Assembly (NCBI GenBank): GCA_036351275.1
Contig: JAZBOU010000178.1
Location: 1 to 57,654 of the forward strand
Length of the DNA stretch: 57,654 nucleotides
Origin: Bacteroidales bacterium
Lineage (GTDB): Bacteria > Bacteroidota > Bacteroidia > Bacteroidales > B18-G4
Direction: 5' to 3'
Shown here: piece after piece, positions 7,693 through 21,971 of the stretch
Layout: each line of letters starts with the position of its first letter
How positions within the stretch are numbered: the first letter of the stretch is position 1
Notes under the pieces: model-generated
What the model saw: the letters and a program-made list of their open reading frames with translations, nothing else
What the model was told of the DNA's origin: nothing
The model's database searches: none
Translations under genes and position numbers: made by a program

Positions 7693-7706
7693 ATAGATCA
7701 TTTTAT

Positions 7707-8155: not shown

Positions 8156-8201
8156 TCATTCTAAATAAGAGCAGTCTTTTCATATTTAAGATCTAGCATA
8201 T

Positions 8202-8209
8202 TACATTTG
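8202..8209 (+). promoter_or_regulatory. Bacteroidota -7 box TACATTTG
   Basis: Matches TAnnTTTG, 37 nt upstream of the ATG at 8246. Confidence 0.45.
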
Positions 8210-8245
8210 TTGCGCTGTGAACAAATTTTATAACATGCTAATCTT

Positions 8246-9037
8246 ATGAAAACAAAAAGCTTTCTTTTTCTTCCAATAGCAAGCCTGCTTATTATCATTT
8301 ACGGTTTTGGAGGTAGTACAAAATGGCCCGGGGGATCTCCGGGAGGGTACACTGGTTCACCGGGTGACGGTAAGGACTGTACCAATTGCCATGGAGGCAA
8401 TGCATCTCAGGTAGCGGGATGGATAACCTCCGATATACCCCCCGAAGGGTATATTCCGGGTGAAACATATACGATCAGCTTATCCGTTTCCGGTACTGGT
8501 GACAAAGGATTTGAGGTTTCCCCCCAGGACCTGCAGGGAAACCTGATAGGTTCGCTGATTGACGGACCCGGCATACATCTTGTGGCGGGAAATACTGCTG
8601 TAACACAGGATGATGCAACCTCAGCCAATCCTGCCCAATGGCAATTTGAGTGGATCGCTCCCGAAGAAGGCACGGGCGATGTGACTTTTTACGGAGCATT
8701 TACGGTGAATAAACCGGTAACCAGGTTATCAACTTTAGTTGCCCAGGAAAATACGGGCGTATCCATCCCGGAACATGAAAACCCACAGGTAAACATATTT
8801 CCAAACCCGGCAAGTAAAGATCTTCACATTACATACCATACCGAAGAAACAGGGGCACTCACGATCGACCTGATTTCCATGAACGGTACGATCATAAGGA
8901 TCCTGGAGAAAATGATATCAGGCGCGGGTGTTTATACATTCGATCATGAGCTGGCACCATCAATTCAGCCGGGTATTTATATTGTACGGATTTCCAGTCC
9001 GGCAGGGGCAGAAAATCACAGGTTGATTGTAAGGTAA
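8246..9037 (+). CDS. T9SS-sorted secreted protein with a single CxxCH motif (putative surface haem protein)
   Basis: 263 aa with a signal peptide. GYTGSPGDGKDCTNCHGG near the N-terminus, and a C-terminal T9SS sorting domain (NIFPNPASKDLHITY...GIYIVRISS...LIVR). Confidence 0.7.
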   Translation: MKTKSFLFLPIASLLIIIYGFGGSTKWPGGSPGGYTGSPGDGKDCTNCHGGNASQVAGWITSDIPPEGYIPGETYTISLSVSGTGDKGFEVSPQDLQGNLIGSLIDGPGIHLVAGNTAVTQDDATSANPAQWQFEWIAPEEGTGDVTFYGAFTVNKPVTRLSTLVAQENTGVSIPEHENPQVNIFPNPASKDLHITYHTEETGALTIDLISMNGTIIRILEKMISGAGVYTFDHELAPSIQPGIYIVRISSPAGAENHRLIVR

Positions 9038-9097
9038 GGAATGTTATCGCTATCTTTACAGAACTGAAAGGTACAATTCAGCCAGAAAATTTCAATT

Positions 9098-9793
9098 ATG
9101 TCAAATCCAAAAATTGACAGCGATTGCAAAAACTGCCAGCGACGCAATAACATATTCGCCCTTCTGAATGAAGAAGAGCTCAAACTGGTGAATGAACACC
9201 GTTACGAACTTGTTTTTAACCCCGGGGAAATCATCTTTAAACAGGGATCGCCGCTCACCCATGTAGCCTGCATAACTGAAGGCCTTGCAAAAATATATAT
9301 AGAGGGCCTGAACAGGCGAAACCTGATTTTATCTTTTGCAAAACCTGTACAAATGATTGGCGGCCCGGGAATGTTTGTCGATTACCGACATCATTTCACC
9401 GTTGCTGCAGTTGAAGAGACCACAGCCTGCCTTGTTGATACCAAAATTATTGAACAGCTTATTGAAAGCAATGCACGTTTTGCCTGCGACCTGTTAAAGC
9501 GTACCAATCAGGTTACCATAGGCAATTTCAATAAATTCATCCATCTTACGCAGAAGCAGATGCATGGCCGTATTGCCGATGCTTTCATCCTGCTGGAAGA
9601 AGAAATATATGGCAGGAACCCTTTTCTTCTTTCTCTTTCCCGCCAGGATCTTGCCGACCTTACTGCTATGTCGAAAGAAAACGTCATCCGTGTTATAAAG
9701 TCCTTCAGAGACCAGGATTTCATTAAAACTGACGGGAACGTTGTTGAAATACTGAATAAGAAAGAATTGGTCAGGATCAGTGAGACCGGGTAA
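9098..9793 (+). CDS. Crp/Fnr family transcriptional regulator
   Basis: 231 aa. cNMP-binding-like beta-roll (FNPGEIIFKQGSP...), C-terminal HTH LSRQDLADLTAMSKENVIRVIKSF, and an N-terminal CKNC pair. Confidence 0.9.
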   Translation: MSNPKIDSDCKNCQRRNNIFALLNEEELKLVNEHRYELVFNPGEIIFKQGSPLTHVACITEGLAKIYIEGLNRRNLILSFAKPVQMIGGPGMFVDYRHHFTVAAVEETTACLVDTKIIEQLIESNARFACDLLKRTNQVTIGNFNKFIHLTQKQMHGRIADAFILLEEEIYGRNPFLLSLSRQDLADLTAMSKENVIRVIKSFRDQDFIKTDGNVVEILNKKELVRISETG

Positions 9794-9872
9794 GGCAAAT
9801 CATCAATTTATACTCAGTCCAATTAATGATATCGTTATTTCACCGCCAATCAGTTCAAACTATAAAGCGTTG

Positions 9873-9880
9873 TATATTTG
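9873..9880 (+). promoter_or_regulatory. Bacteroidota -7 box TATATTTG
   Basis: Matches TAnnTTTG, 19 nt upstream of the FNR-type palindrome and 176 nt upstream of the ATG at 10056. Confidence 0.4.
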
Positions 9881-9898
9881 CACTTTCACATATTCTTA

Positions 9899-9912
9899 TT
9901 GATATATATCAA
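9899..9912. promoter_or_regulatory. FNR/CRP-type operator TTGATATATATCAA
   Basis: Perfect 14-bp palindrome identical to the FNR consensus TTGAT-N4-ATCAA. It lies 106 nt after the Crp/Fnr gene stop and 144 nt before the multihaem cytochrome start. Confidence 0.6.
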
Positions 9913-10055
9913 CATCGTGCTGTTTTAATACCATGATTCGCTGCTGGATCCATCAGCTAAGTCGTCATGTACATCATGGGTTGTTTTCCCCCTGCTGTTT
10001 GAGCTTTTCATAAAATTGTACTGAAAAAAATTAACCAAATTAATTTTCACACAAT

Positions 10056-11114
10056 ATGAAAAAGCTAAACACTATTTTATTCTTTATTCCGGTAATCGTT
10101 TTAATCGTGATCATTGCCAGTTGCACCAAAGAAGGTCCACAGGGTCCGGCTGGTGAAGATGGAATAAACGGTACAGATGGTACAGCCACATGTGCTCAGT
10201 GTCATAATTCAGGTGAAGCATTCTTTGCCAAGGTTGTACAATGGGAGGCCTCTGTGCACGCCACAGGCGGAAATTTTGAACGCAATGGTAGCAGCTGTGC
10301 CCCCTGTCACACCAGCATGGGTTTCAGGGAAGTTCTTGAAACAGGGGAAACATCAACTTCGGCCACCATCAGCGACCCAACACCGATCAGTTGCTACACC
10401 TGTCACAAAGTGCATGAAACCTACACTACAGATGACTGGGAACTCAGGACTATTGCTGCAGTTACATTCCAGGAGGGTTCTGCTACATTTGACTATGGCT
10501 CATCCAACCTCTGCGCAAACTGTCACCAGTCCCGCCCGGCAAGCCCTTACCCGGACCTGGGGACAGGTACAATAGAATTTACGGAGGATGACAGCTATCG
10601 CTGGGGACCCCACCACGGTCCGCAGTCAAACCTGTTTGCCGGAGTTGATAAAAGTGGCGCCTATGAATTAGGTAGTGGCTATGCCAACTCATGGCATACG
10701 AATAATTTCGATAACGCCTGTAAATCCTGCCACATGGCTGAAGCCTTTGGTGCCCAGTCCGGTGGTCATACATTCGCCATGGGTTACGAATATCATGGGA
10801 GTACAGAACTCAACACCGCAGGTTGCCTTGTCTCCGGTTGTCATACCGACGAAGACAATCTCCTCAACACCGTTGAAGAAAAGAAGATGGAAATAGAAGA
10901 CCTGATGGCTGACCTGAAAGTCCTGCTCGAAGCAAACGGCATCATGGATACAGTAGCTCACCCGGGATACCTGGTAATTCCGGGAACGTATCCAAACGAA
11001 CTTGCGGGTGCTTTCTACAATTATAAGTTCATTGAGGAGGACCGTAGTAATGGGCTGCACAACTACAAGTATACCAAGACCCTTCTTGAGAACTCAATTG
11101 CAGCAATACAGTAA
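10056..11114 (+). CDS. Multihaem c-type cytochrome lipoprotein (5 CxxCH + 1 CxxxxCH)
   Basis: 352 aa, lipobox IIASC, six GXY triplets. Motifs CAQCH, CAPCH, CYTCH, CANCH, CKSCH and CLVSGCH. Confidence 0.85.
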   Translation: MKKLNTILFFIPVIVLIVIIASCTKEGPQGPAGEDGINGTDGTATCAQCHNSGEAFFAKVVQWEASVHATGGNFERNGSSCAPCHTSMGFREVLETGETSTSATISDPTPISCYTCHKVHETYTTDDWELRTIAAVTFQEGSATFDYGSSNLCANCHQSRPASPYPDLGTGTIEFTEDDSYRWGPHHGPQSNLFAGVDKSGAYELGSGYANSWHTNNFDNACKSCHMAEAFGAQSGGHTFAMGYEYHGSTELNTAGCLVSGCHTDEDNLLNTVEEKKMEIEDLMADLKVLLEANGIMDTVAHPGYLVIPGTYPNELAGAFYNYKFIEEDRSNGLHNYKYTKTLLENSIAAIQ

Positions 11115-11190
11115 TTATTAATTGATGTTTCGAAAAAGGGCTTCAGTGGATAATTGAGGCCTTTTTTCGTTTCATCTTAAAAAAAAATAT

Positions 11191-11559
11191 ATGAAAATAT
11201 TGAAATCCATACTCTTCGTCGTCATCGCAGGGACACTGCTCACGGCCTGCGAATATGAATGGATACAGCCGGAAAAAAAACCAATTCCGGAAAGTGTGAG
11301 TTTCGCCAATGACATCATGCCTATCTTCAATAACGGCTGCAATACCAATGTATGTCATGGAGCAGGTTCCACACCACCGGATCTTTCTGAGGGGAATGCT
11401 TACAGTTCCCTGATGGATGGTGCTTATGTTGATACCATTGATCCTGAGGCAAGTATTTTGTATACCACCATGAACAGTGGCTCGATGGTGCCCTACACCG
11501 CCCCGGGCGATGATGATATTGTGCTTGCCTGGATACAACAGGGAGCTAAAAACAACTAA
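11191..11559 (+). CDS. Lipoprotein with one PSCyt1-like (planctomycete cytochrome c-like) domain, CxxxxCH variant
   Basis: 122 aa, lipobox LLTAC. DIMPIFNNGCNTNVCHGAGSTPPDLS...MVPYTAPGDDDIVLAWIQQGAKNN has the same architecture as the repeats at 21972-23334. Confidence 0.65.
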   Translation: MKILKSILFVVIAGTLLTACEYEWIQPEKKPIPESVSFANDIMPIFNNGCNTNVCHGAGSTPPDLSEGNAYSSLMDGAYVDTIDPEASILYTTMNSGSMVPYTAPGDDDIVLAWIQQGAKNN

Positions 11560-11578
11560 TGCCTTAAAATCTCAGACT

Positions 11579-12445
11579 ATGAAAAAAACATATAGCTTGA
11601 TTACAATCCTGTTTCTTTTGCCGTTGTTTTTATTCCCGCAGGAAACAGAAAAGAAGATCAAAAGCAAACCGGTAAGAGCACCGTTTGCCTGTCCGGTAGT
11701 GATTGATAACCAGACCGTGTACATTCCAACAGCCAAAACACTCGAATTTGTCATCGAACACAGGTTCGACAAAATAGAAAACATCTCCAACCTGTTTGGG
11801 ATCTATGGTTCATCGAATATCCGCCTGGGCGCGAACTACAGCATCACAAATAAATTGTCCGTAGGGTATGGTATTACCAAATACCGTATGCTTTCCGATT
11901 TCAGGATCAAGTATAATATCCTTGAACAAACCAGGGATAACAAGATCCCCATTGCCCTGACAGCCTATGGGAATATGGGAATCGACGGACGCAATGAAAG
12001 TTATTTCGGGCAGGATTACAAATTCACCAACCGCTTTTCCTATTTTACTGAACTGATCGTTGCACGTAAATTCACCGACTGGCTTTCCATTCAGGTTTCC
12101 GGTAGCTTTTCACATATTAACCGGGTGGATTCTTTGATGGAGCATGACCAGTTTGGGATCTCATTTTCAGGAAGGGCAAGGATCACTCCGCAGTCTTCTA
12201 TTGTATTTAATTATGGTATACCGCTTCAGATCAAAGCGATTGCTGAACATACGACTTTTACCAATCCTCCGACGGATAATTTTGGGATAGCCTGGGAAAT
12301 TTCAACAAGTACTCACTGCTTCCAGATCTTTGTAACATCAGCTACGGATCTTAATCCCCAGTACACTATGATGACAAATCAGAACGACTGGACCAATGGA
12401 GACCTGTACTTTGGCTTTACGATCACTCGACTATGGAGTTTTTAA
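11579..12445 (+). CDS. Outer-membrane beta-barrel protein (I recall this as the Bacteroidota DUF5777 family; verify)
   Basis: The internal ATG at 11579 gives the signal peptide MKKTYSLITILFLLPLFLFPQ. The track ORF from 11477 overlaps the upstream gene. Alternating beta-strand pattern with a C-terminal aromatic (LWSF). Clear paralogue of 19979-20875 (IARKF, FQIF, W.NGD..FGF.ITR blocks). Confidence 0.7.
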   Translation: MKKTYSLITILFLLPLFLFPQETEKKIKSKPVRAPFACPVVIDNQTVYIPTAKTLEFVIEHRFDKIENISNLFGIYGSSNIRLGANYSITNKLSVGYGITKYRMLSDFRIKYNILEQTRDNKIPIALTAYGNMGIDGRNESYFGQDYKFTNRFSYFTELIVARKFTDWLSIQVSGSFSHINRVDSLMEHDQFGISFSGRARITPQSSIVFNYGIPLQIKAIAEHTTFTNPPTDNFGIAWEISTSTHCFQIFVTSATDLNPQYTMMTNQNDWTNGDLYFGFTITRLWSF

Positions 12446-12508
12446 AACGATATTAAACCCGCTTGATGCGCATAAATAACTTGTTAAACACCTAATAATT
12501 CTAGAAAT

Positions 12509-12934
12509 ATGAAAACAAAATTGATCAACAGACTAATTGTACTGGCTGGTACCATAGTATTTGCTTTTGCATTTATGGCATTTATCAGCCCACAGGACGG
12601 ACAAAAGAAAGGTGCTCCCTGGGACATTCCTTCAAAATATGCAAAAATGGAAAATCCCTATGCCAACGACGACCTGACCAAGGTAGGTAAAATGTTGTAC
12701 AGCAAACATTGCAAATCCTGTCATGGGAATAATGGACTTGGCGACGGACCGAAGGCCAAGCAACTGGAAACATTCCCCGGTGATTTTTCCTCTGAAGCAT
12801 TTCAATCCGAAACGGATGGTGAACTATATTATAAATCATTCATCGGCAGGGATGAAATGCCCAATTACGAGAAAAAAATAACGGATGAAGAAGACCGTTG
12901 GGCGATCATCAATTATTTGAGGACACTGAAATAA
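12509..12934 (+). CDS. Monohaem class-I cytochrome c
   Basis: 141 aa, signal/anchor, CKSCHGNNGLGDG haem site, distal Met candidate in GRDEMPNY. Confidence 0.85.
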   Translation: MKTKLINRLIVLAGTIVFAFAFMAFISPQDGQKKGAPWDIPSKYAKMENPYANDDLTKVGKMLYSKHCKSCHGNNGLGDGPKAKQLETFPGDFSSEAFQSETDGELYYKSFIGRDEMPNYEKKITDEEDRWAIINYLRTLK

Positions 12935-12948
12935 AACAGCAAGAATAT

Positions 12949-12983
12949 AAAAGGTGTCATTTGCTTCAAATGGCACCTTTTTT
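12949..12983 (+). terminator. Rho-independent terminator inside the cytochrome cluster
   Basis: 13-bp stem (12949-12961 / 12969-12981, one G-U pair), 7-nt loop TGCTTCA, T-run. Lies 15 nt after the stop at 12934. Confidence 0.65.
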
Positions 12984-13000
12984 CAACGCATTGCCTTGTT

Positions 13001-13981
13001 ATGAAAAAAACGTTGCTTCTATTGCTCCCCTTCATCATAATTATACCACTGATCCTGATATTTCAGCCTCTTTCTTCACAAACTCCCGTTGAAACGGAAG
13101 AGAGGGTATACGAATTTATCGATGAAAATCAGTCGTGCCTTAAATGTCATGGAGACAGCTATTACCATTATTACAATGACTGGGTGGAGCGGGAGATCAA
13201 AGACAGGATGAATCCGTATTATATTATCGATTCGGCTGATTTTTATGCTTCAAACCATTGGAATTTCAGATGCATCGACTGCCATTCAGTGGATTACAGT
13301 GAGTTTCCCCATCCGGGGGAACTGCGCATGGAGCCTTCTTATGAATGCATCGATTGCCATGGTTGGGATGAAAATTATGCACAGTATAACTTTGAAGAAA
13401 TTGAAGAAGATTTTCACAAAAGTGTGCATTCTTCAAAGCATTCAGATGAATTTACCTGCTGGATGTGTCATGATCCTCACACATACAAGATCAACGCCAG
13501 GACAAATGAAAATATGGAGGAATTCATCCAATATGATAACGAGATCTGCCTGAGCTGCCATGCCAATATCTCAAAATATCAGTTGCTCACAAACCTGGAT
13601 AACCCGAATATAATAGATAAACACGATTGGCTGCCCGCCCAGGGGCTTCATTTTAAAAATGTACGGTGTATAGAATGTCATGCCGAGATCAATGACTCAT
13701 TACTGGTTGCACACAATATTCAGCCTAAAGAAAAAGCTGTAAAAAGATGCGTAGAATGCCATTCTAAAAATTCAATGCTGCTGACATCTTTATATAAGAT
13801 GCAGTTTACTGATCAGCGATCGATCACGGGATTCTCCAACGCTGCCATGCTGGAAGAAGGATATATCATTGGTGCAAACAGGAATTATTACCTGAACCGG
13901 CTAAGCATCATACTCTTTGGCCTTGTTTTGCTATTCATAGGATTACATGCCGTACTGCGTATAACTGCCAAACACTCATAG
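13001..13981 (+). CDS. Heptahaem c-type cytochrome with C-terminal membrane anchor
   Basis: 326 aa with a signal peptide. Seven CxxCH motifs (CLKCH, CIDCH x2, CWMCH, CLSCH, CIECH, CVECH). C-terminal TM LSIILFGLVLLFIGLHAVL. Confidence 0.85.
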   Translation: MKKTLLLLLPFIIIIPLILIFQPLSSQTPVETEERVYEFIDENQSCLKCHGDSYYHYYNDWVEREIKDRMNPYYIIDSADFYASNHWNFRCIDCHSVDYSEFPHPGELRMEPSYECIDCHGWDENYAQYNFEEIEEDFHKSVHSSKHSDEFTCWMCHDPHTYKINARTNENMEEFIQYDNEICLSCHANISKYQLLTNLDNPNIIDKHDWLPAQGLHFKNVRCIECHAEINDSLLVAHNIQPKEKAVKRCVECHSKNSMLLTSLYKMQFTDQRSITGFSNAAMLEEGYIIGANRNYYLNRLSIILFGLVLLFIGLHAVLRITAKHS

Positions 13982-13983
13982 CG

Positions 13984-14601
13984 ATGGAAGATAAATTATA
14001 TTTATACCCCTTATGGGTCAGGTCATGGCACTGGCTTAATGCCATTTTATGCCTTATCCTAATAATTACCGGCCTGAGCATGCAGTATTCCGATCCGGAG
14101 TACCCCATTATCAGGTTTGACTATTCCGTTGCGATCCATGATACGGCTGGAATTGTACTCACTGTCAGTTATTTATTTTTCCTGCTCGGCAACATCTTTA
14201 CGTCAAATGGAAACCAGTATTTATTCAGGCTGAAGGGTTACTTTAAAAACGTAAGCAAACAATTCCGCTATTATGCCTACGGTATGTTCAAAGGAGAAAA
14301 CCCTCCGTTTGAGATCACCGAAAAAAATAAGTTTAACCCGCTCCAGCGATTCAGTTATGTGGTGATCATGTACATTGCCACCCCGGTGGTCGTTATTACA
14401 GGATTAATGTTATTGTACCCCGAATATTTCCTCCACGATATATTTGGCAACAGGAGCATACATTATACCGACCTTGTTCATGTCGTGGTGGGATTCATTA
14501 TTTCCTTATTCATGATTATTCATGTGTATTTCTGCACAATAGGACTCAAACCCTGGAGCAATTTCAGGGCCATGTTCACTGGCTTTCATGAAAAGCATTA
14601 A
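13984..14601 (+). CDS. Dihaem b-type cytochrome (PhsC / FdnI / hydrogenase cytochrome b family)
   Basis: 205 aa with four TM helices. Conserved WHWLNA, AIHD, NPLQR, LVHVV and IIHVY (four His candidates). Starts 3 nt after the heptahaem gene. Confidence 0.75.
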   Translation: MEDKLYLYPLWVRSWHWLNAILCLILIITGLSMQYSDPEYPIIRFDYSVAIHDTAGIVLTVSYLFFLLGNIFTSNGNQYLFRLKGYFKNVSKQFRYYAYGMFKGENPPFEITEKNKFNPLQRFSYVVIMYIATPVVVITGLMLLYPEYFLHDIFGNRSIHYTDLVHVVVGFIISLFMIIHVYFCTIGLKPWSNFRAMFTGFHEKH

Positions 14602-14624
14602 GGTACATTTAAAATAAGATCAGG

Positions 14625-15563
14625 ATGGAACACGAGAGCAAAGAAAATCCCAGGAGGGAGTTTATTCGGCGAGGCCTGCTTGCCGGCCTGGGATCCATTG
14701 CTGCGGGAAGTTTGCTTACTTCCTGCAAAGATGATAAATCAGGGAAAAAAGTTAAAGTCCTGACACCCGACGGGAAGTTGGTGGAAGTCGATGCCTCAGA
14801 CATTCAGCCCTCGGAAGAATATAAAATACAGGCCAGAGAGGGTATACCCGGCAGGAAATTCGTCATGGTGATCGACCTGGCAAAATGCTACAATGCCAGG
14901 AAATGTGTCGAGGCATGCCAGGAAGGGCATCACCTCCCTAAAAATCATGAGTACATGAAGGTATACCTGATGCAGGATTCCGATAAATCAGCACCATACT
15001 GGTTTCCAAAACCCTGCTTCCAGTGCGACAATCCATTGTGTGTAAGTGTATGCCCGGTGGGAGCAACATATAAACGGACAGATGGCATTGTGATTGTTGA
15101 TCATGACCGCTGCATAGGATGCAAGTTTTGTATGACAGGCTGCCCTTATTCAGCCAGGAATTTTGCCTGGAAACACCATGAGGAATACGACGACACGATT
15201 GTTTACAATCCTGAAAGCAGTGTTCCAGGGCAGGAAGGTACGGTTTCTAAATGCATTTTTTGTGCCGACAGGCTCAGGGAAAACAAGCTGCCATATTGCC
15301 TTTTGGCCTGCCCCATGGGTGTGATCTACTTTGGCGATATTGATGAAGACGCTGTTACAAATGGATCAGAAACCGTGTCATTCAGTGAATTGATCCGAGA
15401 CCGGCACGGCTATCGGTACCTGGAAGGTCTTGGTACACGGCCAAGTGTGTATTACCTCCCGCCGGTGAACAGGCAGTTCCCTGTTGACCGGGGATATGAC
15501 AGTCTGGATGAAGAGATCAAAGAACGGTATAAGGATACACCATACGCTAAAAACAGGGGGTAA
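14625..15563 (+). CDS. Tat-exported 4Fe-4S ferredoxin-type subunit (NrfC/PsrB/HmcB-like)
   Basis: 312 aa. Twin-arginine signal PRREFIRRGLLAGLGSIAAG. Four Cys clusters including CFQCDNPLCVSVCP and CIGCKFCMTGCP. Confidence 0.9.
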   Translation: MEHESKENPRREFIRRGLLAGLGSIAAGSLLTSCKDDKSGKKVKVLTPDGKLVEVDASDIQPSEEYKIQAREGIPGRKFVMVIDLAKCYNARKCVEACQEGHHLPKNHEYMKVYLMQDSDKSAPYWFPKPCFQCDNPLCVSVCPVGATYKRTDGIVIVDHDRCIGCKFCMTGCPYSARNFAWKHHEEYDDTIVYNPESSVPGQEGTVSKCIFCADRLRENKLPYCLLACPMGVIYFGDIDEDAVTNGSETVSFSELIRDRHGYRYLEGLGTRPSVYYLPPVNRQFPVDRGYDSLDEEIKERYKDTPYAKNRG

Positions 15564-15565
15564 GC

Positions 15566-16885
15566 ATGGAAAGCACAAACACTGCCAGTTTCGACAAACT
15601 CCGGGAATTCCGTTCACAGGTAGAAAGACCGAGCAAAATCTCTATCGCCTGGATCGTTTTGCTGGTTCTACTTATTATCTGGGGATTATATGCACTCTAC
15701 ACCCAGATAACTGAAGGCCATATAGTAACCGGGATGAGAGATAATGTGGTCTGGGGTATATATATTGTTAATTTCATTTTCTTCATGGGGATCAGTTACG
15801 CAGGTGCGCTGATCTCAGGCACTCTCCACCTTTTCAGGACCAGCTGGAGGAAGCCGGTAATTCGCATGGCTGAATTCATCACCATCATTGCCCTGTTTAT
15901 TGGCCCGCTGTATATTTTGCTATGTATCGGCCGCCTTGAACGCATCCCCTACCTTGTACTTTTCGGCAGGATACAGTCGCCAATAACCTGGGACGTAATT
16001 GCCATCTCAACCGATATCATAGGATGTATAATATTTCTGTACCTCTCAGTCCTGAGGGATATTGCAGCCTTGCGTGATTTTAAAGACCTGAAGATCCCCA
16101 AATGGAGAAAGACACTATACCGGTGGCTCGCACTGGGCTATACAGGTACACCCGAACAACAAAAAAGATTGAATAGTGCAACCGATGTCATGGCTGCCAT
16201 GGTCATCGCAATCGCAATCATTGTGTATTCTGTGCTGGCATGGATCTTCAGCGTTACCCTCCAGCCCGGGTGGCACAGTACAATATTCGGACCTTATTTC
16301 GTGATCGCAGCAGTTTATTCGGGTACCGGCGTGCTCATTATTGCAATGTGGCTTTTCCGCAAGATCTATCGTCTTGAAAAATACCTTACCCGTAAGCATT
16401 TTGTGAATATCGGCGTACTCATGCTGATCCTTGCTGCATTTTTCGGATATTTTACTTTTAGCGAATATCTTACGAAATGGTATGGATCGCAAAAGGATGA
16501 TGAGAAACTGATCAGCCTTCTGATGGACAAATATTTCCTGATGTTCATAATTTCCAATTACCTGGGAGTGCTTATGCCACTTATCGTAGTGGGAATACCC
16601 AAATTCAGGACCATCAATATGATAACCATTACGGCAGTAGTTGTGGTCATTGCGCTATGGTTAAACCGCTATCTTATCGTGATTCCAACGCTTGAATCGC
16701 CCTACCTTCCAATACAGGATGCGCGTATTGACTGGGTGTCCTATTCAGGTACGTGGGTAGAGTGGGCGCTGACCATCTCGGGAGTTGCTGCATTTTGCCT
16801 TTTCTTTACAATAGGAGCCCGGTTTATACCGATCATTCCGGTCTCGCAAGAAAAAGAAAAAAGAAAAAACAAGGAAATTCTGTAG
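15566..16885 (+). CDS. NrfD/PsrC/HmcC-like integral membrane quinol-interacting subunit
   Basis: 439 aa, about 10 TM helices, N-terminal region typical of the NrfD family. Starts 3 nt after the FeS gene. Confidence 0.88.
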   Translation: MESTNTASFDKLREFRSQVERPSKISIAWIVLLVLLIIWGLYALYTQITEGHIVTGMRDNVVWGIYIVNFIFFMGISYAGALISGTLHLFRTSWRKPVIRMAEFITIIALFIGPLYILLCIGRLERIPYLVLFGRIQSPITWDVIAISTDIIGCIIFLYLSVLRDIAALRDFKDLKIPKWRKTLYRWLALGYTGTPEQQKRLNSATDVMAAMVIAIAIIVYSVLAWIFSVTLQPGWHSTIFGPYFVIAAVYSGTGVLIIAMWLFRKIYRLEKYLTRKHFVNIGVLMLILAAFFGYFTFSEYLTKWYGSQKDDEKLISLLMDKYFLMFIISNYLGVLMPLIVVGIPKFRTINMITITAVVVVIALWLNRYLIVIPTLESPYLPIQDARIDWVSYSGTWVEWALTISGVAAFCLFFTIGARFIPIIPVSQEKEKRKNKEIL

Positions 16886-16913
16886 AGGTTTTGTAACGAT
16901 AAAAGCAGAAGCG

Positions 16914-17783
16914 ATGAAAAAACTGATCCTATATTCAATCTTTATCATACTGGCCTGGGGTATTTCGTTTTCAACAGCCTATCCAAATGATGACGAACCC
17001 GGTGAGATCTACATGGAATTCACTACCTGGAAATATAATGATATGAGCCGTTCTCTCATAGCAAAACTTAGCTCAGATAATGACGACGGAGAATATTTTG
17101 TACGAGACATTCCGGTACAATTCTACCTGACAGACGGTGAAGAAAACCTCATACTCGGAGAAGCAGTAAGTGATAATAACGGTATAGCAGAATTGAATAT
17201 ACCTGATGGAAATGTGATTTACCCGATGGACGAAGAAGGCTACATATATTTTACCGCCAATTACCCCGGAGGAGACAGATACCTGGAGGTTGAAGAGGAA
17301 CTGATGGTGAAAGACGTAAGTATCAGCCTTTCATTAGAGGATGGTGAGGATGGAAAGTTCATCTATTTCAAAGGTGTGATCCACGGACCTGAAGAAGACT
17401 GGCCCCTGGCGGATGATGACCTTTACTTTTACGTCCCGAGAATGTTCAGTGATATGAAGATAGCTGATGGCTGGTTTGAAGAGGACGGAACCGGCTTTGT
17501 CGAGTTTCCAACAACCGTTGTCGGTGACTCGGTTGGGAATGTATTGGTTAAAGCCAGATTATTTGAGCACTACGACTATGGCAATGTTGAGGTAACGAAA
17601 ATGGTGAACTGGGCCAGACCGAAACGACTGATCTCAGCAGAAAAGCCGGTACGGGAACTCTGGACACCCATAGCACCGCTCTGGATGATCATTACCCTCA
17701 TCATCATGCTTACCGGGGTATGGGCACATTATATCTACGCGATCATCCAGCTAATACTCATTAAACGTTCTAAGAATAAATAA
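16914..17783 (+). CDS. Hypothetical periplasm-facing protein with signal peptide and C-terminal TM anchor
   Basis: 289 aa, acidic, beta-rich. C-terminal TM LWMIITLIIMLTGVWAHYIYAIIQLIL. No recognisable motif. Confidence 0.5.
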   Translation: MKKLILYSIFIILAWGISFSTAYPNDDEPGEIYMEFTTWKYNDMSRSLIAKLSSDNDDGEYFVRDIPVQFYLTDGEENLILGEAVSDNNGIAELNIPDGNVIYPMDEEGYIYFTANYPGGDRYLEVEEELMVKDVSISLSLEDGEDGKFIYFKGVIHGPEEDWPLADDDLYFYVPRMFSDMKIADGWFEEDGTGFVEFPTTVVGDSVGNVLVKARLFEHYDYGNVEVTKMVNWARPKRLISAEKPVRELWTPIAPLWMIITLIIMLTGVWAHYIYAIIQLILIKRSKNK

Positions 17784-17820
17784 ATTCGGTATTCGATTAC
17801 CGAAATTTCGCTTTATTCTA

Positions 17821-17828
17821 TACTTTTG
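17821..17828 (+). promoter_or_regulatory. Bacteroidota -7 box TACTTTTG
   Basis: Matches TAnnTTTG, 20 nt upstream of the ATG at 17848. A possible internal promoter for ccsBA. Confidence 0.45.
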
Positions 17829-17847
17829 CAGATAGAAAACATCATTA

Positions 17848-19092
17848 ATGGCTAAAAATAAATCTAAAACCAAACTCTGGGATTTTCCCTGGGGATACCG
17901 CGAAAGTTTCCTGATAGCTGTTTTCATGCTTCTGACGGGATTCGTGATCGAATTGTTTACGGGTGGCGGAGTCAGCATGCCAACATGGCCTGTTAATATT
18001 GCTATCATCCTTGTATTTATCATTTACTTCATACTGGTACACCATTTTATCAAGCATCCTCTTGTAACATGGTTGTCGAGTGTTCCTGCTGCCATTGCCT
18101 CCATCAGTGTATTTACCCTGATGGTCCTTTTTATGGGATTTATCCCTCAGGGAACCCATCAGGAAGCAGACCTGCTCGAAAAGTTGGGACTGCGACAGAT
18201 AACCAGCAGCTGGCCCTATTTGCTTACGGCTGTCTTCCTGCTTGTTGTTCTTGGGTTTACGATAGTGCGCCGATTCAATTCCTATTCCCTGAAGAATATT
18301 GCATTCCTCTTGAATCACAGCGGCCTTTGGATCGTGGTTGTGGCTGCATCTCTGGGTTCATCCGACATGTGGCGCTTGAGCATGCAGCTTGAGACCAAAC
18401 ATCCTGTTACAACTGCTTACGATGCTCGCGGACAGGCCTACAATATGGGATTTGGAATGCTCCTGCTTGATTTTAATATAGAGGAATATGATCCGCAGGT
18501 TGGACTTATGCGAAATGCTGATTATACACTTCAGCTTGAAAAAGGAGGAAAACTGGCCACGGTCATTGAAGGTGGAACGGGAATGCTTGAAAACTATGAG
18601 CTGACATTCCAGAGATACATCGACAATGCCCATAAATTTGGGGAGGTTTATGATACCTCATCCATGCCAGGCGGATCGCATGCCGTATATATCATCGCTA
18701 AAGACCAGAATACCGGTCAGACTGTGGAAGGCTGGGTCTCTGACGGCAGTATAGATACCTCTCCCAGTTTCCTGAGGCTAAATTCCGAACTGTCGGTAGC
18801 CATGACAAATGTACGGCCCAAAAAATTCTCATCTGACATCCGCGTTTACACATCTATGGAAGAATTTGAAGATTTTCGCATAGAGGTGAACAAACCGGTG
18901 AACGTTCAGGGCTGGAAGATATATCAGACCGGCTATGATGAAATAATGGGACGATGGTCGAATAAGAGCATTATTGAACTCGTGCGTGACCCCTGGTTAC
19001 CTGTTGTGTACACCGGAATATTTATGATATTGATTGGGACCCTCTACCTGCTCTGGATGGGAAAAGGCCGAACTAAAAAGAAAGAACTATGA
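17848..19092 (+). CDS. ccsB: System II cytochrome c biogenesis protein CcsB/ResB-like
   Basis: 414 aa. N-terminal TM helices, a large soluble loop and a C-terminal TM. The stop overlaps the ccsA start (ATGA at 19089-19092). Confidence 0.7.
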   Translation: MAKNKSKTKLWDFPWGYRESFLIAVFMLLTGFVIELFTGGGVSMPTWPVNIAIILVFIIYFILVHHFIKHPLVTWLSSVPAAIASISVFTLMVLFMGFIPQGTHQEADLLEKLGLRQITSSWPYLLTAVFLLVVLGFTIVRRFNSYSLKNIAFLLNHSGLWIVVVAASLGSSDMWRLSMQLETKHPVTTAYDARGQAYNMGFGMLLLDFNIEEYDPQVGLMRNADYTLQLEKGGKLATVIEGGTGMLENYELTFQRYIDNAHKFGEVYDTSSMPGGSHAVYIIAKDQNTGQTVEGWVSDGSIDTSPSFLRLNSELSVAMTNVRPKKFSSDIRVYTSMEEFEDFRIEVNKPVNVQGWKIYQTGYDEIMGRWSNKSIIELVRDPWLPVVYTGIFMILIGTLYLLWMGKGRTKKKEL

Positions 19093-19886
19093 CCTGGTTA
19101 GATTATCCTACATATTTGCTGATGACCACCGTATTCTGGTCGCTTGCCCTGATCATGCTCCTCACACCCAGGAAGTCGATCTTCAGAAAGCTCATCGGTT
19201 TGTTCCTTATCATTGGCTGGGCAGCTATTCTGACTTTTACCATAAGCCTGTGGGTAAGCCTTGAACGGCCTCCTTTCAGAACCCTGGCGGAGACACGGTT
19301 ATGGTATGGTGTGTTCATATCTACCATTGGGATCGTGCTATACTACCGCTGGAAGCTCCCGCTCATGCTGGCCTACACTATTCTGATGGCTATACTTTTC
19401 CTTTTCCTGAACTACCTCAATCCCGATACATTCGATAAAACGCTGATGCCGGCACTGCAAAGCCCCTGGTTTATCCCTCATGTTGTGGTTTACATTGTGG
19501 GGTATGCCTTCCTTGGTTTCTCATCCCTGATCGGTGTGTGGGGCCTATATAAACATTACCGTGGAGAAAATACCGATAAGGTTATGCTTATGGCCGATAA
19601 CATCGTATATATCGGTTTTGCATTCCTGACTTTTGGATTGTTGTTTGGCGCACTCTGGGCCAAGGAAGCCTGGGGACATTACTGGACCTGGGATCCGAAG
19701 GAAACCTGGGCCTTTCTTACATGGCTGGCCTATCTGTTGTATATCCATTACAGGATCAGAAAACGGCAATCGCATAAAACTGCCCTCTGGATCGTAGCAC
19801 TGGCATTCGTTATACTGCTGATCTGCTGGTTCGGGATCAACTACCTGCCTTCGGCACAGTCAAGCGTACACACTTATTCTTCATGA
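19089..19886 (+). CDS. ccsA: System II cytochrome c biogenesis haem-handling protein CcsA/ResC
   Basis: 265 aa. Trp-rich WWD-type motif WGHYWTWDPKETWAFLTWL and flanking conserved His residues. Confidence 0.9.
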   Translation: MTWLDYPTYLLMTTVFWSLALIMLLTPRKSIFRKLIGLFLIIGWAAILTFTISLWVSLERPPFRTLAETRLWYGVFISTIGIVLYYRWKLPLMLAYTILMAILFLFLNYLNPDTFDKTLMPALQSPWFIPHVVVYIVGYAFLGFSSLIGVWGLYKHYRGENTDKVMLMADNIVYIGFAFLTFGLLFGALWAKEAWGHYWTWDPKETWAFLTWLAYLLYIHYRIRKRQSHKTALWIVALAFVILLICWFGINYLPSAQSSVHTYSS

Positions 19887-19978: not shown

Positions 19979-20875
19979 CTACGGTTCTCTCTTCGGCTTT
20001 TTAATCGTAAATGCACGGGTAATGTTAAAGCCGATGCGGATATCGCCATTGGCCCATGAACCCGTTGTTCTGGGAATATAATACTCTTCAATGGCACCTC
20101 GCCCGTTGGTGGCAAATATCTGGAAAATATGTCCGCCGGTCTCAATATCAAAGCCTATTGTCAGGGGGTTATGGAAATCATCTGCCGTTTGACCCGGCAA
20201 GAGGTAATAATACTCAGCATTTATGGACACCCTGTTTGATATTTTTATCCTCCCGCCTATACCGATCGAGAATACGTCGTTTTGATCTATCTCCCTTTCC
20301 ACCAGGTTACGGTGAATAAAGGTGGGCATCAATTGCAGTGAAAACGCATTGCTGAACTTGCGTGCGATCAGCAGCTGATGGGCAAATGACATTCTCGAAG
20401 TAAAATAATTCTTTCTGTCCGGGTCCTGCCACTTCAATGAATTTATGGCCATACTTCCGAAGTAGGAAACTGAAATGGGCATTTTGCGGAGTCCGGTAGA
20501 CTGGCGTAACAATTTAAGCTTGGTGAAGCCGTCGAAGGTTTTGTCGAGGGTACTCCTGCCAATGCCAAGGGCAATCCAGTCATTTACACCGTATTCAAAT
20601 CCAATGCGGGTTGTTGCCTGGTCGAGCCCGAAAAATTCGTATGCTCCCTGGTTGACTGTACCAAAATGATGTGAGACAACGAAGATAAGATTCCCGTTGG
20701 GTGGATTTTCGATGGATTGCCCGATGCAGATCCGTGTGGTCTTGAATGTGGCATAGGTATATTCTGTTGTGGGTTCTTCTTCCCCGAACAGTTCCATCAG
20801 GTCATCCTGGGATGTAACCCGCGCCGAGGCTGCCATCAGTGCAGCCAGGCACAGGAATACGTATTTTTTGATCAT
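19979..20875 (-). CDS. Outer-membrane beta-barrel protein, paralogue of 11579-12445 (DUF5777-like)
   Basis: 298 aa with a signal peptide. Shares LIFVVSHHFG, LLIARKFS, HIFQIFATN and WANGDIRIGFNITRAF blocks with the first barrel. Confidence 0.7.
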   Translation of the reverse strand: MIKKYVFLCLAALMAASARVTSQDDLMELFGEEEPTTEYTYATFKTTRICIGQSIENPPNGNLIFVVSHHFGTVNQGAYEFFGLDQATTRIGFEYGVNDWIALGIGRSTLDKTFDGFTKLKLLRQSTGLRKMPISVSYFGSMAINSLKWQDPDRKNYFTSRMSFAHQLLIARKFSNAFSLQLMPTFIHRNLVEREIDQNDVFSIGIGGRIKISNRVSINAEYYYLLPGQTADDFHNPLTIGFDIETGGHIFQIFATNGRGAIEEYYIPRTTGSWANGDIRIGFNITRAFTIKKPKREP

Positions 20876-20881
20876 ATGAGG

Positions 20882-21436
20882 TTATGGTTTAACCTCCTCC
20901 AGCATTATATCAACTGTTACTTCAATGCTTTCGGAGATTTGTTTTCTCACAGCTCCGGGCACTTTGATGTCATAATCTTCAAGCAGTACGTTGAAAACGC
21001 TTAGCCCCTGTATCGTTCCTCCAGCAACAGTGAAGCTGCCTTTCTCATCAACTTCATTGGTAACACCGTGTATGGTGAGTTCGCCCTTCACGGAAGCGTC
21101 ATACGTACCATTTTTAGAAAAATCGATGTTTGCAGCATTGCTTACTTTCCCGCGAAACATGGCATTGGGGAATTTGTCCGATTCCATGTAATTCTCGTTA
21201 AAATGCTCCTGCATCAACGCCTTCTCAAATTCAAACGACTTGATCAGCACCTTAAAAACCAGGTCGCCCGTTTCAGGATTAAGTGCAGCATTCACTGCAT
21301 GGTTGTGTGCCTCGATCGTTTCAATAGGGGTTTCTGAATAGAACTTGATGTGGCCTGTTTTGGTAACATAGTTCTGTGCAAGCACGGCTGTTGTAAGCAA
21401 CAGGCTGATCGTTAAACCACTAATTATTCTTTTCAT
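20882..21436 (-). CDS. YceI family periplasmic protein
   Basis: The ATG at 21436 gives the signal peptide MKRIISGLTISLLLTTAVLAQ. YceI-like KTGHIKFYSETPIETIEAHN...DKFPNAMFRGKV. Confidence 0.85.
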   Translation of the reverse strand: MKRIISGLTISLLLTTAVLAQNYVTKTGHIKFYSETPIETIEAHNHAVNAALNPETGDLVFKVLIKSFEFEKALMQEHFNENYMESDKFPNAMFRGKVSNAANIDFSKNGTYDASVKGELTIHGVTNEVDEKGSFTVAGGTIQGLSVFNVLLEDYDIKVPGAVRKQISESIEVTVDIMLEEVKP

Positions 21437-21492
21437 GTTTTGTTGTGTTTTAATGAATATTTCATTAGTAACACTTAACCCCTGCATATAGT

Positions 21493-21933: not shown

Positions 21934-21971
21934 ATCACTTAAAATATAAATTTCATATACAGAATTTCAAA

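Follow-up and report, generated by a model that had tools for sequence, protein, structure and literature searches.

A Bacteroidales gene cluster plausibly encoding an uncharacterised electron-export respiratory chain

Eleven co-directional ORFs at positions 10056-19886 (+ strand) of the 57.6 kb stretch of Bacteroidales DNA analysed here (the window) form a candidate electron-transfer cluster, which plausibly encodes an uncharacterised electron-export respiratory chain. Judging from the sequences, we consider it probable, if only slightly so, that the cluster represents an anaerobically induced branch under FNR control, moving electrons from menaquinol to outer-membrane-tethered cytochromes. 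Such a branch would be a variant of the known logic of extracellular electron transfer (EET); the cluster itself is conserved across hundreds of uncultured species. The 11 co-directional genes reported in the earlier note were borne out by an ORF check, each being present on the + strand at the coordinates below, which also include the regulatory features.

9098-9793, + strand: Crp/Fnr-family transcription regulator (cNMP_binding and HTH_Crp_2 domains)
9899-9912, no strand assigned: perfect FNR/CRP box TTGATATATATCAA, 144 bp upstream of the 6-haem gene
10056-11114, + strand: hexahaem lipoprotein "h6", assigned to the NrfA/OcwA superfamily by motifs, Foldseek and profile; proposed terminal reductase
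11131-11169, + strand: terminator-like hairpin (17-bp stem and T-run) directly 3' of the 6-haem gene
11191-11559, + strand: monohaem PSCyt-like lipoprotein "slp" (CNTNVCH haem motif; weak LIC11213_lipo match)
11579-12445, + strand: DUF5777 outer-membrane beta-barrel with 12 strands and a conserved N-terminal extension (PF19089, E 4e-73)
12463-12476, no strand assigned: second FNR-like box TTGATGCGCATAAA with one mismatch, between the barrel and monohaem c genes, a candidate only
12509-12934, + strand: class I monohaem cytochrome c, periplasmic carrier (PF00034, E 5e-12)
13001-13981, + strand: heptahaem cytochrome c "h7" with a C-terminal membrane helix (seven invariant CxxCH)
13984-14601, + strand: dihaem cytochrome b of the HydC/FdnI/PhsC type (PF01292, E 1e-27; PhsC-like, 171 bits)
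14625-15563, + strand: Tat-exported NrfC/DsrO-type iron-sulfur protein (Fer4_11; RREFIRR motif read from the sequence)
15566-16885, + strand: NrfD/PsrC-type quinol-interacting integral membrane subunit (PF03916, E 4e-31)
16914-17783, + strand: orphan protein crossing the membrane once, with a domain in the periplasm and a C-terminal membrane helix that is highly conserved
17848-19092, + strand: CcsB/ResB, System II cytochrome c maturation (PF05140, E 5e-14)
19089-19886, + strand: CcsA/ResC, System II cytochrome c maturation (PF01578, E 4e-35), with the WWD motif visible as WGHYWTWD

In the chain that we propose, quinol electrons would leave through two inner-membrane modules, one being a split CbcL/MtrH-type bc cytochrome formed by h7 and the dihaem cytochrome b, and the other an NrfC/NrfD-type pair of FeS and membrane proteins with a family-specific single-pass subunit, a module whose place is taken by ImcH in about half of the relatives. 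From there, electrons would reach h6 either without an intermediate or by way of the monohaem cytochrome c, whose gene is found at 35 of 60 related loci, and h6 would serve as terminal reductase on a collagen-like stalk. The slp lipoprotein and the DUF5777 barrel may form an outer-membrane module, either admitting an acceptor or shuttle or docking cytochromes. The acceptor is likely extracellular or only outer-membrane-permeant, such as metal chelates or oxides, humic-type quinones or shuttles.

The proposed terminal reductase h6 carries a lipobox Cys23, a collagen-like G-X-Y stalk following the lipidated Cys, and six haem sites (five CxxCH and one CLVSGCH). None of the six sites varies across 50 homologues, most of which have a plain CxxCH as the last one, and the homologue alignment revealed six more His that are invariant, together with the motif GPHHGPQ. 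Foldseek returned OcwA (6i5b) as the top match (E 2e-4, TM 0.47), ahead of NrfA, ONR and OmhA, an undecahaem S-layer cytochrome; with a TM of about 0.47 and models devoid of haems, these structural matches are moderate. In the profile comparison against the PDB, OcwA (1.3e-9) again came before NrfA (1e-4), and the alignment of h6 with OcwA displays common last haem motifs and a common S-x-G-x-H-N helix motif. On these comparisons, h6 is assigned to the NrfA/OcwA multihaem superfamily, with OcwA as its closest solved relative. OcwA of Thermincola is a demonstrated surface terminal reductase, which also reduces nitrite and hydroxylamine (PMC6703420). The absence of a catalytic subunit, claimed in the earlier note, holds for molybdopterin and copper subunits, as no such subunit and no CxxCK subunit is encoded within the whole 57.6 kb window, but not for the 6-haem protein, a member of a catalytic multihaem superfamily. 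Mature h6 begins with C-T-K-E-G and so has one acidic residue, whereas the Capnocytophaga export signal C-X-K-(D/E)2 requires two; a surface location of h6 and slp is putative.

On the quinol side, h7 has, in addition to its seven CxxCH motifs, seven invariant distal His and an invariant His316 inside the membrane helix, and all seven c-haems appear bis-His. In the cytochrome b, His16, 52, 166 and 180 are invariant and provide the haem ligands. Both proteins are related to neighbours of MtrB/DmsE in an anode-enriched Zoogloea genome, h7 with 35% identity (E 2e-56) and the cytochrome b with 39% identity to the partner protein. Together they display 1+5 membrane helices, a layout matched by the CbcL architecture (PMC6295460), and are by sequence a split CbcL/MtrH-type quinol oxidase. 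The best named match of the FeS protein is DsrO with 168 bits, under the 200-bit cutoff of that model. Its first Cys group comprises three Cys (C-x5-C-x3-C) and the protein has 15 Cys in total rather than 16, so that the "4x[4Fe-4S]" of the earlier note is not strictly shown. The component families named in that note hold. For the orphan at 16914-17783, neither a Pfam domain nor a PDB relative was found for the family, which counts 381 relatives; the orphan accompanies the FeS and NrfD genes in all nine of the loci having them.

This trio of FeS protein, NrfD and orphan gives way to a genuine ImcH homologue in 30 of 60 related loci, or about half. The homologue, some 500 aa long, has its membrane helices at the N-terminus and carries six CxxCH motifs and a single CX3CH. 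Its conserved Glu, His, Lys, Gln and Tyr residues are spaced as are E127, H137, K173, Q179 and Y188 in ImcH of G. sulfurreducens, and we take these features to identify a bona fide ImcH. CbcL and ImcH are the two inner-membrane EET entry points of Geobacter (PMC6295460). Known electron-export components thus have homologues here in the terminal cytochrome as well as in the inner-membrane modules, which is at odds with the earlier view of a system built from unrelated families.

A core of h6, slp, barrel, h7 and cytochrome b keeps its order at 51 of the 60 informative loci, an arrangement that is, therefore, far from chance. In a one-genome-per-species collection, at least 581 confirmed matches to the 6-haem protein were counted, spanning Bacteroidales, Lentimicrobiaceae, Marinilabiliales, Ignavibacteria and others. 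A distant, full-length h6 homologue, JNFKJAOJ_00301 (31% identity, E 5e-46), with the same lipobox and collagen-like stalk, is encoded by "Bacteroidetes_1" (class UBA10030, Bacteroidota), which was 39-fold enriched on an anode (Berger et al. 2021, PMC8258643). It is accompanied by ImcH, a fused CbcL-like protein, a barrel of 426 aa and further multihaem cytochromes, and the authors proposed the seven-gene cytochrome/barrel cluster of this organism as an uncharacterised electron-export cluster (PMC8258643). At a further locus (L079), h6 forms a porin-cytochrome-like trio with two neighbours, a 12-haem cytochrome and a protein of 404 aa that bears a signal peptide. The OcwA match, the split CbcL/MtrH-type module, ImcH in relatives and the anode-genome homologue lend support to the wire from quinol to the outer membrane suggested earlier.

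Anaerobic control is suggested by the Crp/Fnr regulator, in which Cys10, Cys13 and Cys111 are conserved and which has a homologue beside the cluster at 42 of the 60 related loci. The TTGATATATATCAA box is the sole exact match in the 57.6 kb window, and an FNR box with at most one mismatch precedes the orthologous 6-haem gene in 53 of 77 loci, compared to a background of 0.055 per 350 bp. The hairpin 3' of the 6-haem gene may mean that the transcript of this gene is higher than that of the downstream genes. Neither the upstream Crp/Fnr gene with its FNR box nor the NrfA-superfamily membership of the 6-haem protein had been part of the earlier reading.

As h6 belongs to a catalytic superfamily and has a conserved His-His pair like those of the OcwA active sites, a role as a small-molecule reductase is possible. 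In this case, h6 would be a compact, periplasmic NrfA-like enzyme with one open-coordination haem, reducing nitrite, hydroxylamine, NO or a sulfur/selenium oxyanion that enters through the barrel, while the bc and FeS/NrfD modules would act as quinol dehydrogenases, as NrfH and NrfBCD do for NrfA; we regard this as unlikely. Some h6 homologues reveal weak PF02335 matches and one is named NrfA by NCBI, but h6 has no CxxCK and the catalytic Tyr/His/Arg set of NrfA is not alignable. Within GPHHGPQ, H186 is invariant and H187 at least 90% conserved, and both lie in the inter-haem segment that holds the HH above the open haem 5 of OcwA; however, the HMM alignment sets the two HH pairs about nine residues apart, and with exactly six invariant non-motif His per six haems, all haems may be bis-His. 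FeS protein and NrfD are classic NrfCD partners, the barrel has the fold of small-solute channels and FNR control suits any anaerobic respiration, yet CbcL-type and ImcH-type partners are known only from extracellular electron transfer, and distant h6 homologues are found in porin-plus-multihaem clusters.

In the outer-membrane module, slp has a single haem motif in 70 of 70 orthologues (CxxCH in 52, Cx4CH in 18) and an invariant C-terminal WIxQGAxNN. The mechanical ORF of the barrel starts at GTG 11477, while a start at ATG 11579 yields a normal signal peptide. Its AF2 model (pLDDT 88.6) displays 12 strands, with the COG4313 channel, FapF, OmpG, KdgM, NanC and Tsx as Foldseek matches, and a barrel of only 12 strands cannot enclose a multihaem cytochrome in the manner of MtrB. 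The porin-cytochrome conduit of the earlier note, which had been tied to a barrel able to accommodate a cytochrome, is, therefore, not retained: at 12 strands and 288 aa, the DUF5777 barrel is too small and a multihaem cytochrome does not fit. Among the cluster proteins, there is no outer-membrane-spanning haem component.

Less probable still than a small-molecule reductase is a new kind of trans-outer-membrane conduit, in which slp and the 12-stranded barrel would carry electrons, a bound redox cofactor or a metal ion across the membrane and link the periplasmic carriers to a surface-exposed h6, as a split miniature analogue of the fused Cyc2. DUF5777 barrels are regularly paired with a monohaem PSCyt-like lipoprotein, the slp and barrel genes lie side by side at 54 of 60 loci, and a paralogous pair recurs in the window without multihaem proteins, its lipoprotein (21972-22376) being 27% identical to slp. 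After the lipid Cys, slp, which opens with C-E-Y-E in its mature form, and its paralogues are acidic, resembling the Bacteroidota surface-export signal, and the cluster encodes no larger porin. Nevertheless, the lumen of 12 strands is too small for a haem domain, a single haem cannot bridge a membrane of about 3-4 nm, and of the top 150 DUF5777 family representatives, not one carries a fused cytochrome. The barrel has an invariant His61, His179 and His246, charged residues and a conserved N-terminal segment, but in the AF2 model these His seem, by eye, in phase with lipid-facing residues. Instead of energy-conserving electron export, the chain might feed the quinone pool with electrons drawn from a partner organism or from reduced metals, or might reduce or oxidise metals at the outer membrane to detoxify them or take them up; this is improbable. 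In its favour, members of the CbcL/MtrH/MtoC family are known from Fe(II) oxidisers as well as from Fe(III) reducers (PMC6295460), and the same window encodes a CusA-OEP fusion, CusB, DUF2202, a ZIP transporter and a second module of DUF5777, PSCyt and YceI. Against it, ImcH, the alternative module of the relatives, has so far turned up in reducers only, the hosts, being anaerobic and fermentative Bacteroidales, have an obvious need for an electron sink, and the metal-efflux genes are not conserved beside the cluster in related loci.

Compared with known systems, the electron-export chain proposed here resembles several in part. The NrfA/NrfBCD or NrfHA nitrite reductase systems have a terminal multihaem protein of the same superfamily and share NrfC-like FeS and NrfD-like subunits as well as FNR control; in contrast, h6 is a lipoprotein with six haems rather than five and no CxxCK haem, there is no NrfB or NrfH, and the partners are CbcL- and ImcH-type. 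OcwA (Thermincola potens, PDB 6i5b) and OmhA (Carboxydothermus, 6qvm), cell-surface terminal reductases of the NrfA/ONR/MccA superfamily, are the best fold and profile match to h6 and share with it the last haem motifs, CHM, a C-terminal helical bundle, S-x-G-x-H-N, and a conserved His-His pair in the same inter-haem segment. However, h6 has six haems instead of nine or eleven, is about 19% identical, comes from a Gram-negative host, and has a lipid anchor and collagen-like stalk in place of cell wall or S-layer association.

The porin-cytochrome conduits, MtrCAB of Shewanella as well as OmaB-OmbB-OmcB and ExtABCD of Geobacter, likewise combine an outer-membrane barrel, lipoprotein cytochromes and inner-membrane quinol oxidases, with the same general logic of wiring quinol to the outer membrane. 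The sheath of MtrB has 26 strands and is much larger than the present barrel (12 strands, 288 aa), which has no sequence relation to MtrB or OmbB, and the cluster has no soluble periplasmic deca- or octahaem cytochrome to thread it. In strand number and size, the DUF5777 barrel equals COG4313 (Pput2725), FapF, NanC, KdgM and Tsx, though there is no detectable sequence homology and DUF5777 is specifically partnered with haem lipoproteins.

Geobacter CbcL is similar to h7 and its HydC/FdnI-type dihaem cytochrome b in the 1+5 membrane helices, but here two genes encode what is a single protein there, and the haems number seven instead of nine. ImcH of Geobacter shares its key-residue spacing with the related loci, in which CbcL and ImcH modules sit with outer cytochrome genes, whereas the window has no ImcH and instead the NrfC/NrfD pair with the orphan subunit, an arrangement that we take to be reminiscent of the Geobacter Cbc4 complex. 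The "Bacteroidetes_1" cluster, with a 426-aa barrel, extra multihaem cytochromes and a fused CbcL, differs in having no DUF5777 barrel, PSCyt-like lipoprotein or NrfCD pair, but shares with the cluster and its relatives an h6 homologue with a Cx4CH last motif, ImcH and a CbcL-type protein.

All eleven co-directional genes that the earlier note had described between 10056 and 19886 are present there as open reading frames, and their families were confirmed:

10056-11114, plus strand: h6, a 352-aa lipoprotein with six haem motifs, five CxxCH and one Cx4CH
11191-11559, plus strand: slp, a 122-aa PSCyt-like monohaem lipoprotein, Cx4CH
11579-12445, plus strand: barrel, DUF5777 (E 4e-73), likeliest start ATG 11579
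12509-12934, plus strand: monohaem cytochrome c, class I
13001-13981, plus strand: h7, a 326-aa heptahaem cytochrome c, seven CxxCH and a C-terminal membrane helix
13984-14601, plus strand: cytochrome b, PF01292 (E 1e-27), PhsC-like
14625-15563, plus strand: FeS protein, Tat-exported, Fer4_11; DsrO, TtrB, QrcC and NrfC-like scores all under the equivalog cutoffs
15566-16885, plus strand: NrfD-family membrane protein, NrfD Pfam match
16914-17783, plus strand: orphan protein, 289 aa
17848-19092, plus strand: ResB/CcsB, PF05140 (E 5e-14)
19089-19886, plus strand: CcsA, PF01578 (E 4e-35), with WGHYWTWD in its sequence

The DUF5777 (PF19089) model scored the barrel at 246 bits, with a cutoff of 23.1, and a second copy at 19979-20875 at 329 bits. 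A ResB-like protein next to a CcsA with the Trp-rich WWD motif makes the last two genes a System II pair for cytochrome c maturation (CcsBA), and the FeS protein and NrfD form a membrane module of the NrfCD/PsrBC type (CISM), a type that usually comes with a catalytic subunit carrying molybdopterin or haem. The FeS protein, described before as carrying four [4Fe-4S] clusters, does belong to a Tat-exported FeS family, but its first Cys group holds three Cys only. After its twin-arginine signal (14625-14730), a possible lipobox, L-T-S-C, is followed by K-D-D, a likeness to the Bacteroidota surface-export signal that is odd for the expected partner of an inner-membrane NrfD. Nowhere in the 57.6 kb window is there a gene for a molybdopterin, copper or CxxCK protein, and a search for a reductase elsewhere in the window found none. 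T9SS sorting domains are encoded near the cluster, and the nearest syntenic relative is an uncultured Bacteroidetes genome.

The best-supported reading, to which we give a modest preference, is an FNR-induced respiratory branch leading from menaquinol to an OcwA-like hexahaem lipoprotein at the outer membrane. Menaquinol would be oxidised by a split CbcL-type module and an NrfCD-type module, the electrons would then pass through periplasmic and anchored c-haems to end on h6, and slp and the barrel would act as an outer-membrane accessory, be it channel, dock or relay. The general idea of a wire from the quinone pool to the outer membrane, put forward in the earlier note, is thereby kept, while its porin-cytochrome mechanism, its unrelated families and its lack of a catalytic subunit are given up.

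The gene directly upstream of the cluster encodes a Crp/Fnr-family regulator (9098-9793), and a TTGAT-N4-ATCAA box, the sole perfect copy in the window, lies at 9899-9912, 144 bp ahead of h6. Boxes with at most one mismatch precede the h6 orthologue in 53 of 77 related loci (background 0.055 per 350 bp), mostly 115-175 bp from the start codon, and Cys10, Cys13 and Cys111 are kept in the regulator family. Judged from the regulator gene, the box, its conservation and these cysteines, the cluster is very probably turned on under anoxia. A scan for sigma-70 promoters and terminators, with Bacteroidota promoters outside its reach, gave 27 and 11 hits, as against 26.6 and 11.1 expected from shuffled sequence; only one hairpin stood out, a strong one directly 3' of h6 (11131-11169) with a 17-bp stem and a T-run. 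It is possibly an attenuating terminator, by which h6 would be expressed above the remaining cluster genes.

When genomes, one for each species, were scanned by pattern, at least 581 confirmed h6 relatives emerged, which span Bacteroidales, Lentimicrobiaceae, Marinilabiliales, Draconibacterium, Ignavibacteria, Chlorobiota, Marinimicrobia and Saprospiraceae. In Draconibacterium, a genus with cultivated members, the cluster occurs in two metagenome-assembled genomes. Gene content was counted in 60 non-redundant loci, each with 5 kb or more of sequence downstream. Both slp and the barrel occur in 54 of them, the full core (h6, slp, barrel, h7 and cytochrome b) in 51, the monohaem cytochrome c in 35, and CcsA or CcsB in 14. 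The trio of FeS protein, NrfD and orphan protein is found in nine loci and is replaced by an ImcH-type protein of about 500 aa in 30, the window being a minority variant that has NrfCD and the orphan subunit where others carry ImcH.

The earlier note took the system to be built from unrelated families, a view that does not fit the inner-membrane part, which consists of known electron-export modules. In h7, seven CxxCH, seven distal His and one His inside the membrane helix are invariant; cytochrome b has four invariant His, the number expected for two b-haems, and together the two proteins have 1+5 membrane helices. In CbcL, MtrH and MtoC, a HydC/FdnI-type cytochrome b of six helices forms one polypeptide with a multihaem c domain (PMC6295460), and h7 with cytochrome b has the features of this family, but split, with no fusion into a single polypeptide. 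Both are similar to adjacent Zoogloea proteins (h7 35% identical, E 2e-56; cytochrome b 39%, E 4e-54), encoded beside MtrB and DmsE homologues in a genome that was anode-enriched. As for ImcH, tblastn revealed no homologue in the window. The protein of about 500 aa in the related loci combines membrane helices at its N-terminus with six CxxCH and a single CX3CH. Counted from its first haem His, the residue at -10 is Glu, that at +36 Lys, that at +42 Gln and that at +51 Tyr, exactly as E127, H137, K173, Q179 and Y188 are spaced in G. sulfurreducens ImcH. For example, the protein at 15114-16613 of locus L001 has its key residues spaced identically, and the type is 41% identical to an ImcH-like protein of the anode-enriched Bacteroidota genome. 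With this protein in related loci and the CbcL-type pair, the cluster family therefore combines both quinol oxidase types by which electrons enter extracellular transfer in Geobacter. In a survey of CbcL and ImcH homologues, Bacteroidetes were few and none had the split CbcL form. One Saprospiraceae locus has the NrfCD trio without the CbcL pair, so that the trio is apparently able to serve alone.

The orphan protein (16914-17783) has no Pfam or NCBIfam match, its 381 homologues are all unnamed, and a profile search against the PDB returned nothing significant. Its single C-terminal membrane helix (17640-17783) is almost invariant among 29 homologues of 41-88% identity, with the consensus LWTPxAPxWMIxTLIxxLxGVWxHYxYA, which includes a conserved His. 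Such near-invariance points to a cofactor ligand or to a specific contact within the membrane.

At the other end of the proposed chain stands h6. Six haem motifs, the lipobox Cys and the T-K-E-G that follows it are invariant across 50 homologues, as are six additional His (H68, H120, H186, H214, H238 and H335), while H187 is kept in at least 90% of them, giving the motif GPHHGPQ. The AF2 model of h6 has a mean pLDDT of 80 with a disordered stalk. In Foldseek, OcwA of Thermincola came out on top (E 2e-4, TM 0.47), followed by NrfA (5e-3) and the octahaem nitrite reductase ONR (7e-3), and also by OmhA, an undecahaem S-layer protein, and MccA. With h6 and h7 as single sequences, PDB searches were marginal only, and a profile search was needed for h6; it found OcwA (1.3e-9) and NrfA (1.2e-4), matching the last two haem motifs, CHM and a C-terminal S-x-G-x-H-N helix. 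With its haem-core fold, C-terminal helical bundle and profile similarity, h6 belongs to the NrfA/ONR/MccA/OcwA multihaem superfamily, and the claim that the cluster lacks a catalytic subunit is not upheld, as h6 itself falls into this superfamily.

OcwA, which has been characterised by experiment, is the terminal reductase on the surface of a Gram-positive bacterium that respires on electrodes; two of its haems have open coordination, each under a His-His cap, and it turns over nitrite and hydroxylamine slowly (PMC6703420). Its family has nine haems, whereas h6 has six. The HH pair of h6 (H186/H187) lies in the inter-haem segment equivalent to that of OcwA, with an offset of about nine residues in the HMM alignment; it may mark an open haem, or H186 may be the sixth distal ligand, and the six invariant extra His may permit bis-His coordination at every haem. 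We consider it unlikely that h6 serves instead as a periplasmic NrfA-like reductase of a small molecule, a reading favoured by its superfamily. NrfA proper was rejected as an identity for h6: all six motifs are His-ended, no CxxCK occurs in the 50 homologues, and NrfA has five haems. The Tyr/His/Arg catalytic set of NrfA gave no alignment onto h6.

The location of h6 bears on the same choice between periplasm and outer membrane. Lipoprotein export in Bacteroidota is signalled by C-X-K-(D/E)2 in Capnocytophaga and by an acidic run in Bacteroides (PMC5080379). The invariant C-T-K-E-G of h6 has the fitting Lys and a single acidic residue, a partial match, and slp starts with C-E-Y-E; the start residues of both are suggestive of surface export, neither being decisive. 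Residues 24-45 of h6 (window 10125-10190) consist of T-K-E-G and six collagen-like G-X-Y triplets, of which homologues have 5-11. The repeat suggests a stalk, and possibly trimerisation of h6; to our knowledge, no collagen-like stalk is known on any cytochrome.

For the outer-membrane reading, two relatives are informative. In a genome of the Bacteroidota class UBA10030 that was enriched 39-fold on an anode, Berger et al. 2021 (PMC8258643) described seven clustered genes for cytochromes and a barrel, which they termed an uncharacterised electron-export cluster. The last protein of this cluster is homologous to h6 over the full length (31% identity, E 5e-46) with the lipobox, the collagen-like stalk and the Cx4CH last motif all as in h6, but the cluster differs from ours in having a fused CbcL, ImcH, a 426-aa barrel and more multihaem proteins. 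In locus L079, from uncultured bacterium LOGT_bin.0142, the h6 homologue has as neighbours a 12-haem cytochrome and a secreted protein of 404 aa. The L079 cytochrome island (3963-13228) is much larger than the cluster and also encodes an 11-haem lipoprotein, a cytochrome b to which seven c-haems are fused, an h7-like protein with 13 haems and a c554-like tetrahaem protein, and the 404-aa protein is without a Pfam match. The similarity of this putative porin to the barrel of the anode genome was marginal (E 0.007) and was set aside as evidence of homology. Read from these neighbourhoods, the UBA10030 and L079 relatives have the h6 family where a porin-cytochrome trio has its outer lipoprotein cytochrome. 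The parts come from families already known, and one publication has drawn attention to a related cluster. Our literature search found no paper that mentions 'DUF5777'; otherwise it brought up the related UBA10030 cluster only, and no description of this exact architecture, of the pairing of DUF5777 with PSCyt, of the collagen-like stalk or of the orphan NrfCD subunit.

The AF2 model of the barrel (11579-12445; 288 aa, pLDDT 88.6) has 12 strands, which follow a conserved segment at the N-terminus. Channels of 12-14 strands were its nearest folds in Foldseek, namely a COG4313 channel, FapF, OmpG, KdgM, NanC and Tsx, and its DUF5777 profile detected no relative among PDB sequences. A COG4313-type (Phenol_MetA_deg) outer-membrane barrel of the same fold class adjoins a ZIP-family metal transporter in the window (38698-40312); its sequence (39530-40312) and DUF5777 have no profile similarity. 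By eye, with DSSP strand limits, the invariant H61, H179 and H246 of the barrel seem in phase with lipid-facing residues, not the lumen, and may be contacts for the partner lipoprotein or for oligomerisation. That partner, slp, is encoded directly upstream of the barrel in 54 of the 60 loci and retains its single haem motif in all 70 orthologues. An exhaustive profile search yielded 2098 DUF5777 family representatives; among the best 150, nearly all are stand-alone proteins of 280-315 aa, and the longer ones have a tandem barrel or low-complexity tails.

The pairing recurs next to the cluster in a paralogous outer-membrane set of five proteins (19979-23358, minus strand):

19979-20875, minus strand: DUF5777 barrel copy
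20882-21487, minus strand: YceI-like protein
21493-21933, minus strand: OB-fold tRNA_anti-like protein
21972-22376, minus strand: monohaem PSCyt-like lipoprotein
22360-23358, minus strand: lipoprotein with three PSCyt-like haem repeats

Its lipoprotein-barrel pair (19979-22376) is 27% and 29% identical to slp and the barrel, acidic residues follow the Cys in all of its lipoproteins, and the module also adjoins the cluster in the four closest relatives (L003, L008, L010 and L021). Further along, a 1445-aa protein (24315-28652) is made up of a whole RND pump of the AcrB/CusA type and, fused to it, an OEP/TolC-like outer-membrane efflux domain, with a DUF2202 ferritin-like protein (23306-24253) before it and a CusB-like adaptor (28664-29830) after it, and a 734-aa protein (34085-36289) is an unusual fusion of urea-transporter (UT) and Peptidase_M23 domains.

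The constancy of the slp-barrel pair speaks for a genuinely new trans-membrane relay, and the known inner-membrane modules and the OcwA likeness of h6 point to the respiratory branch; we regard such a relay as doubtful, somewhat more so than a periplasmic reductase. Reverse electron flow or metal handling is the least probable alternative.

Sediments, aquifers, digesters and bioelectrochemical reactors are rich in Bacteroidales, Lentimicrobiaceae and related groups, bacteria that are usually deemed plain fermenters. The favoured respiratory branch, an FNR-controlled chain of CbcL, ImcH and OcwA types, would give them a respiratory sink in metals, humics, electrodes or partner cells, which would alter models of carbon and electron flow in their communities. 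A first function would go to three uncharacterised families, namely DUF5777, the PSCyt-like lipoproteins and the orphan NrfCD-associated subunit, and the mechanistic question is raised by which route electrons reach the cell exterior when the sole barrel is too small for a cytochrome.

Known systems cross the outer membrane differently. MtrB has 26 strands, and Pcc-type porins are also far bigger than 12 strands. A 12-strand lumen is too narrow for a multihaem cytochrome, so an MtrAB-type mechanism is excluded for the cluster, and the proposed porin-cytochrome conduit fails on the size of its barrel. In MtrCAB and Pcc, a periplasmic protein of 8-12 haems enters the porin; such a protein is absent here, where the only multihaem protein besides h6 is h7, anchored by its C-terminal membrane helix next to cytochrome b, and none of the periplasmic kind is encoded elsewhere in the window. 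Cyc2-type proteins join a monohaem cytochrome domain to a larger porin barrel in one polypeptide. A fused cytochrome-porin of this type was rejected, as lipoprotein and 12-strand barrel are here separate genes and none of the best 150 of 2098 DUF5777 representatives has a cytochrome domain. We offer as a speculative and rather improbable proposal that anaerobic Bacteroidota export respiratory electrons by a new outer-membrane device, in which the DUF5777 barrel and the PSCyt-like lipoprotein would pass them to a trimeric, collagen-stalked h6 at the surface. If true, hundreds of uncultured sediment and digester species would hold the DUF5777/PSCyt device, which would add a third architecture to the MtrCAB/Pcc sheaths and the Cyc2 fusions as ways across the outer membrane.
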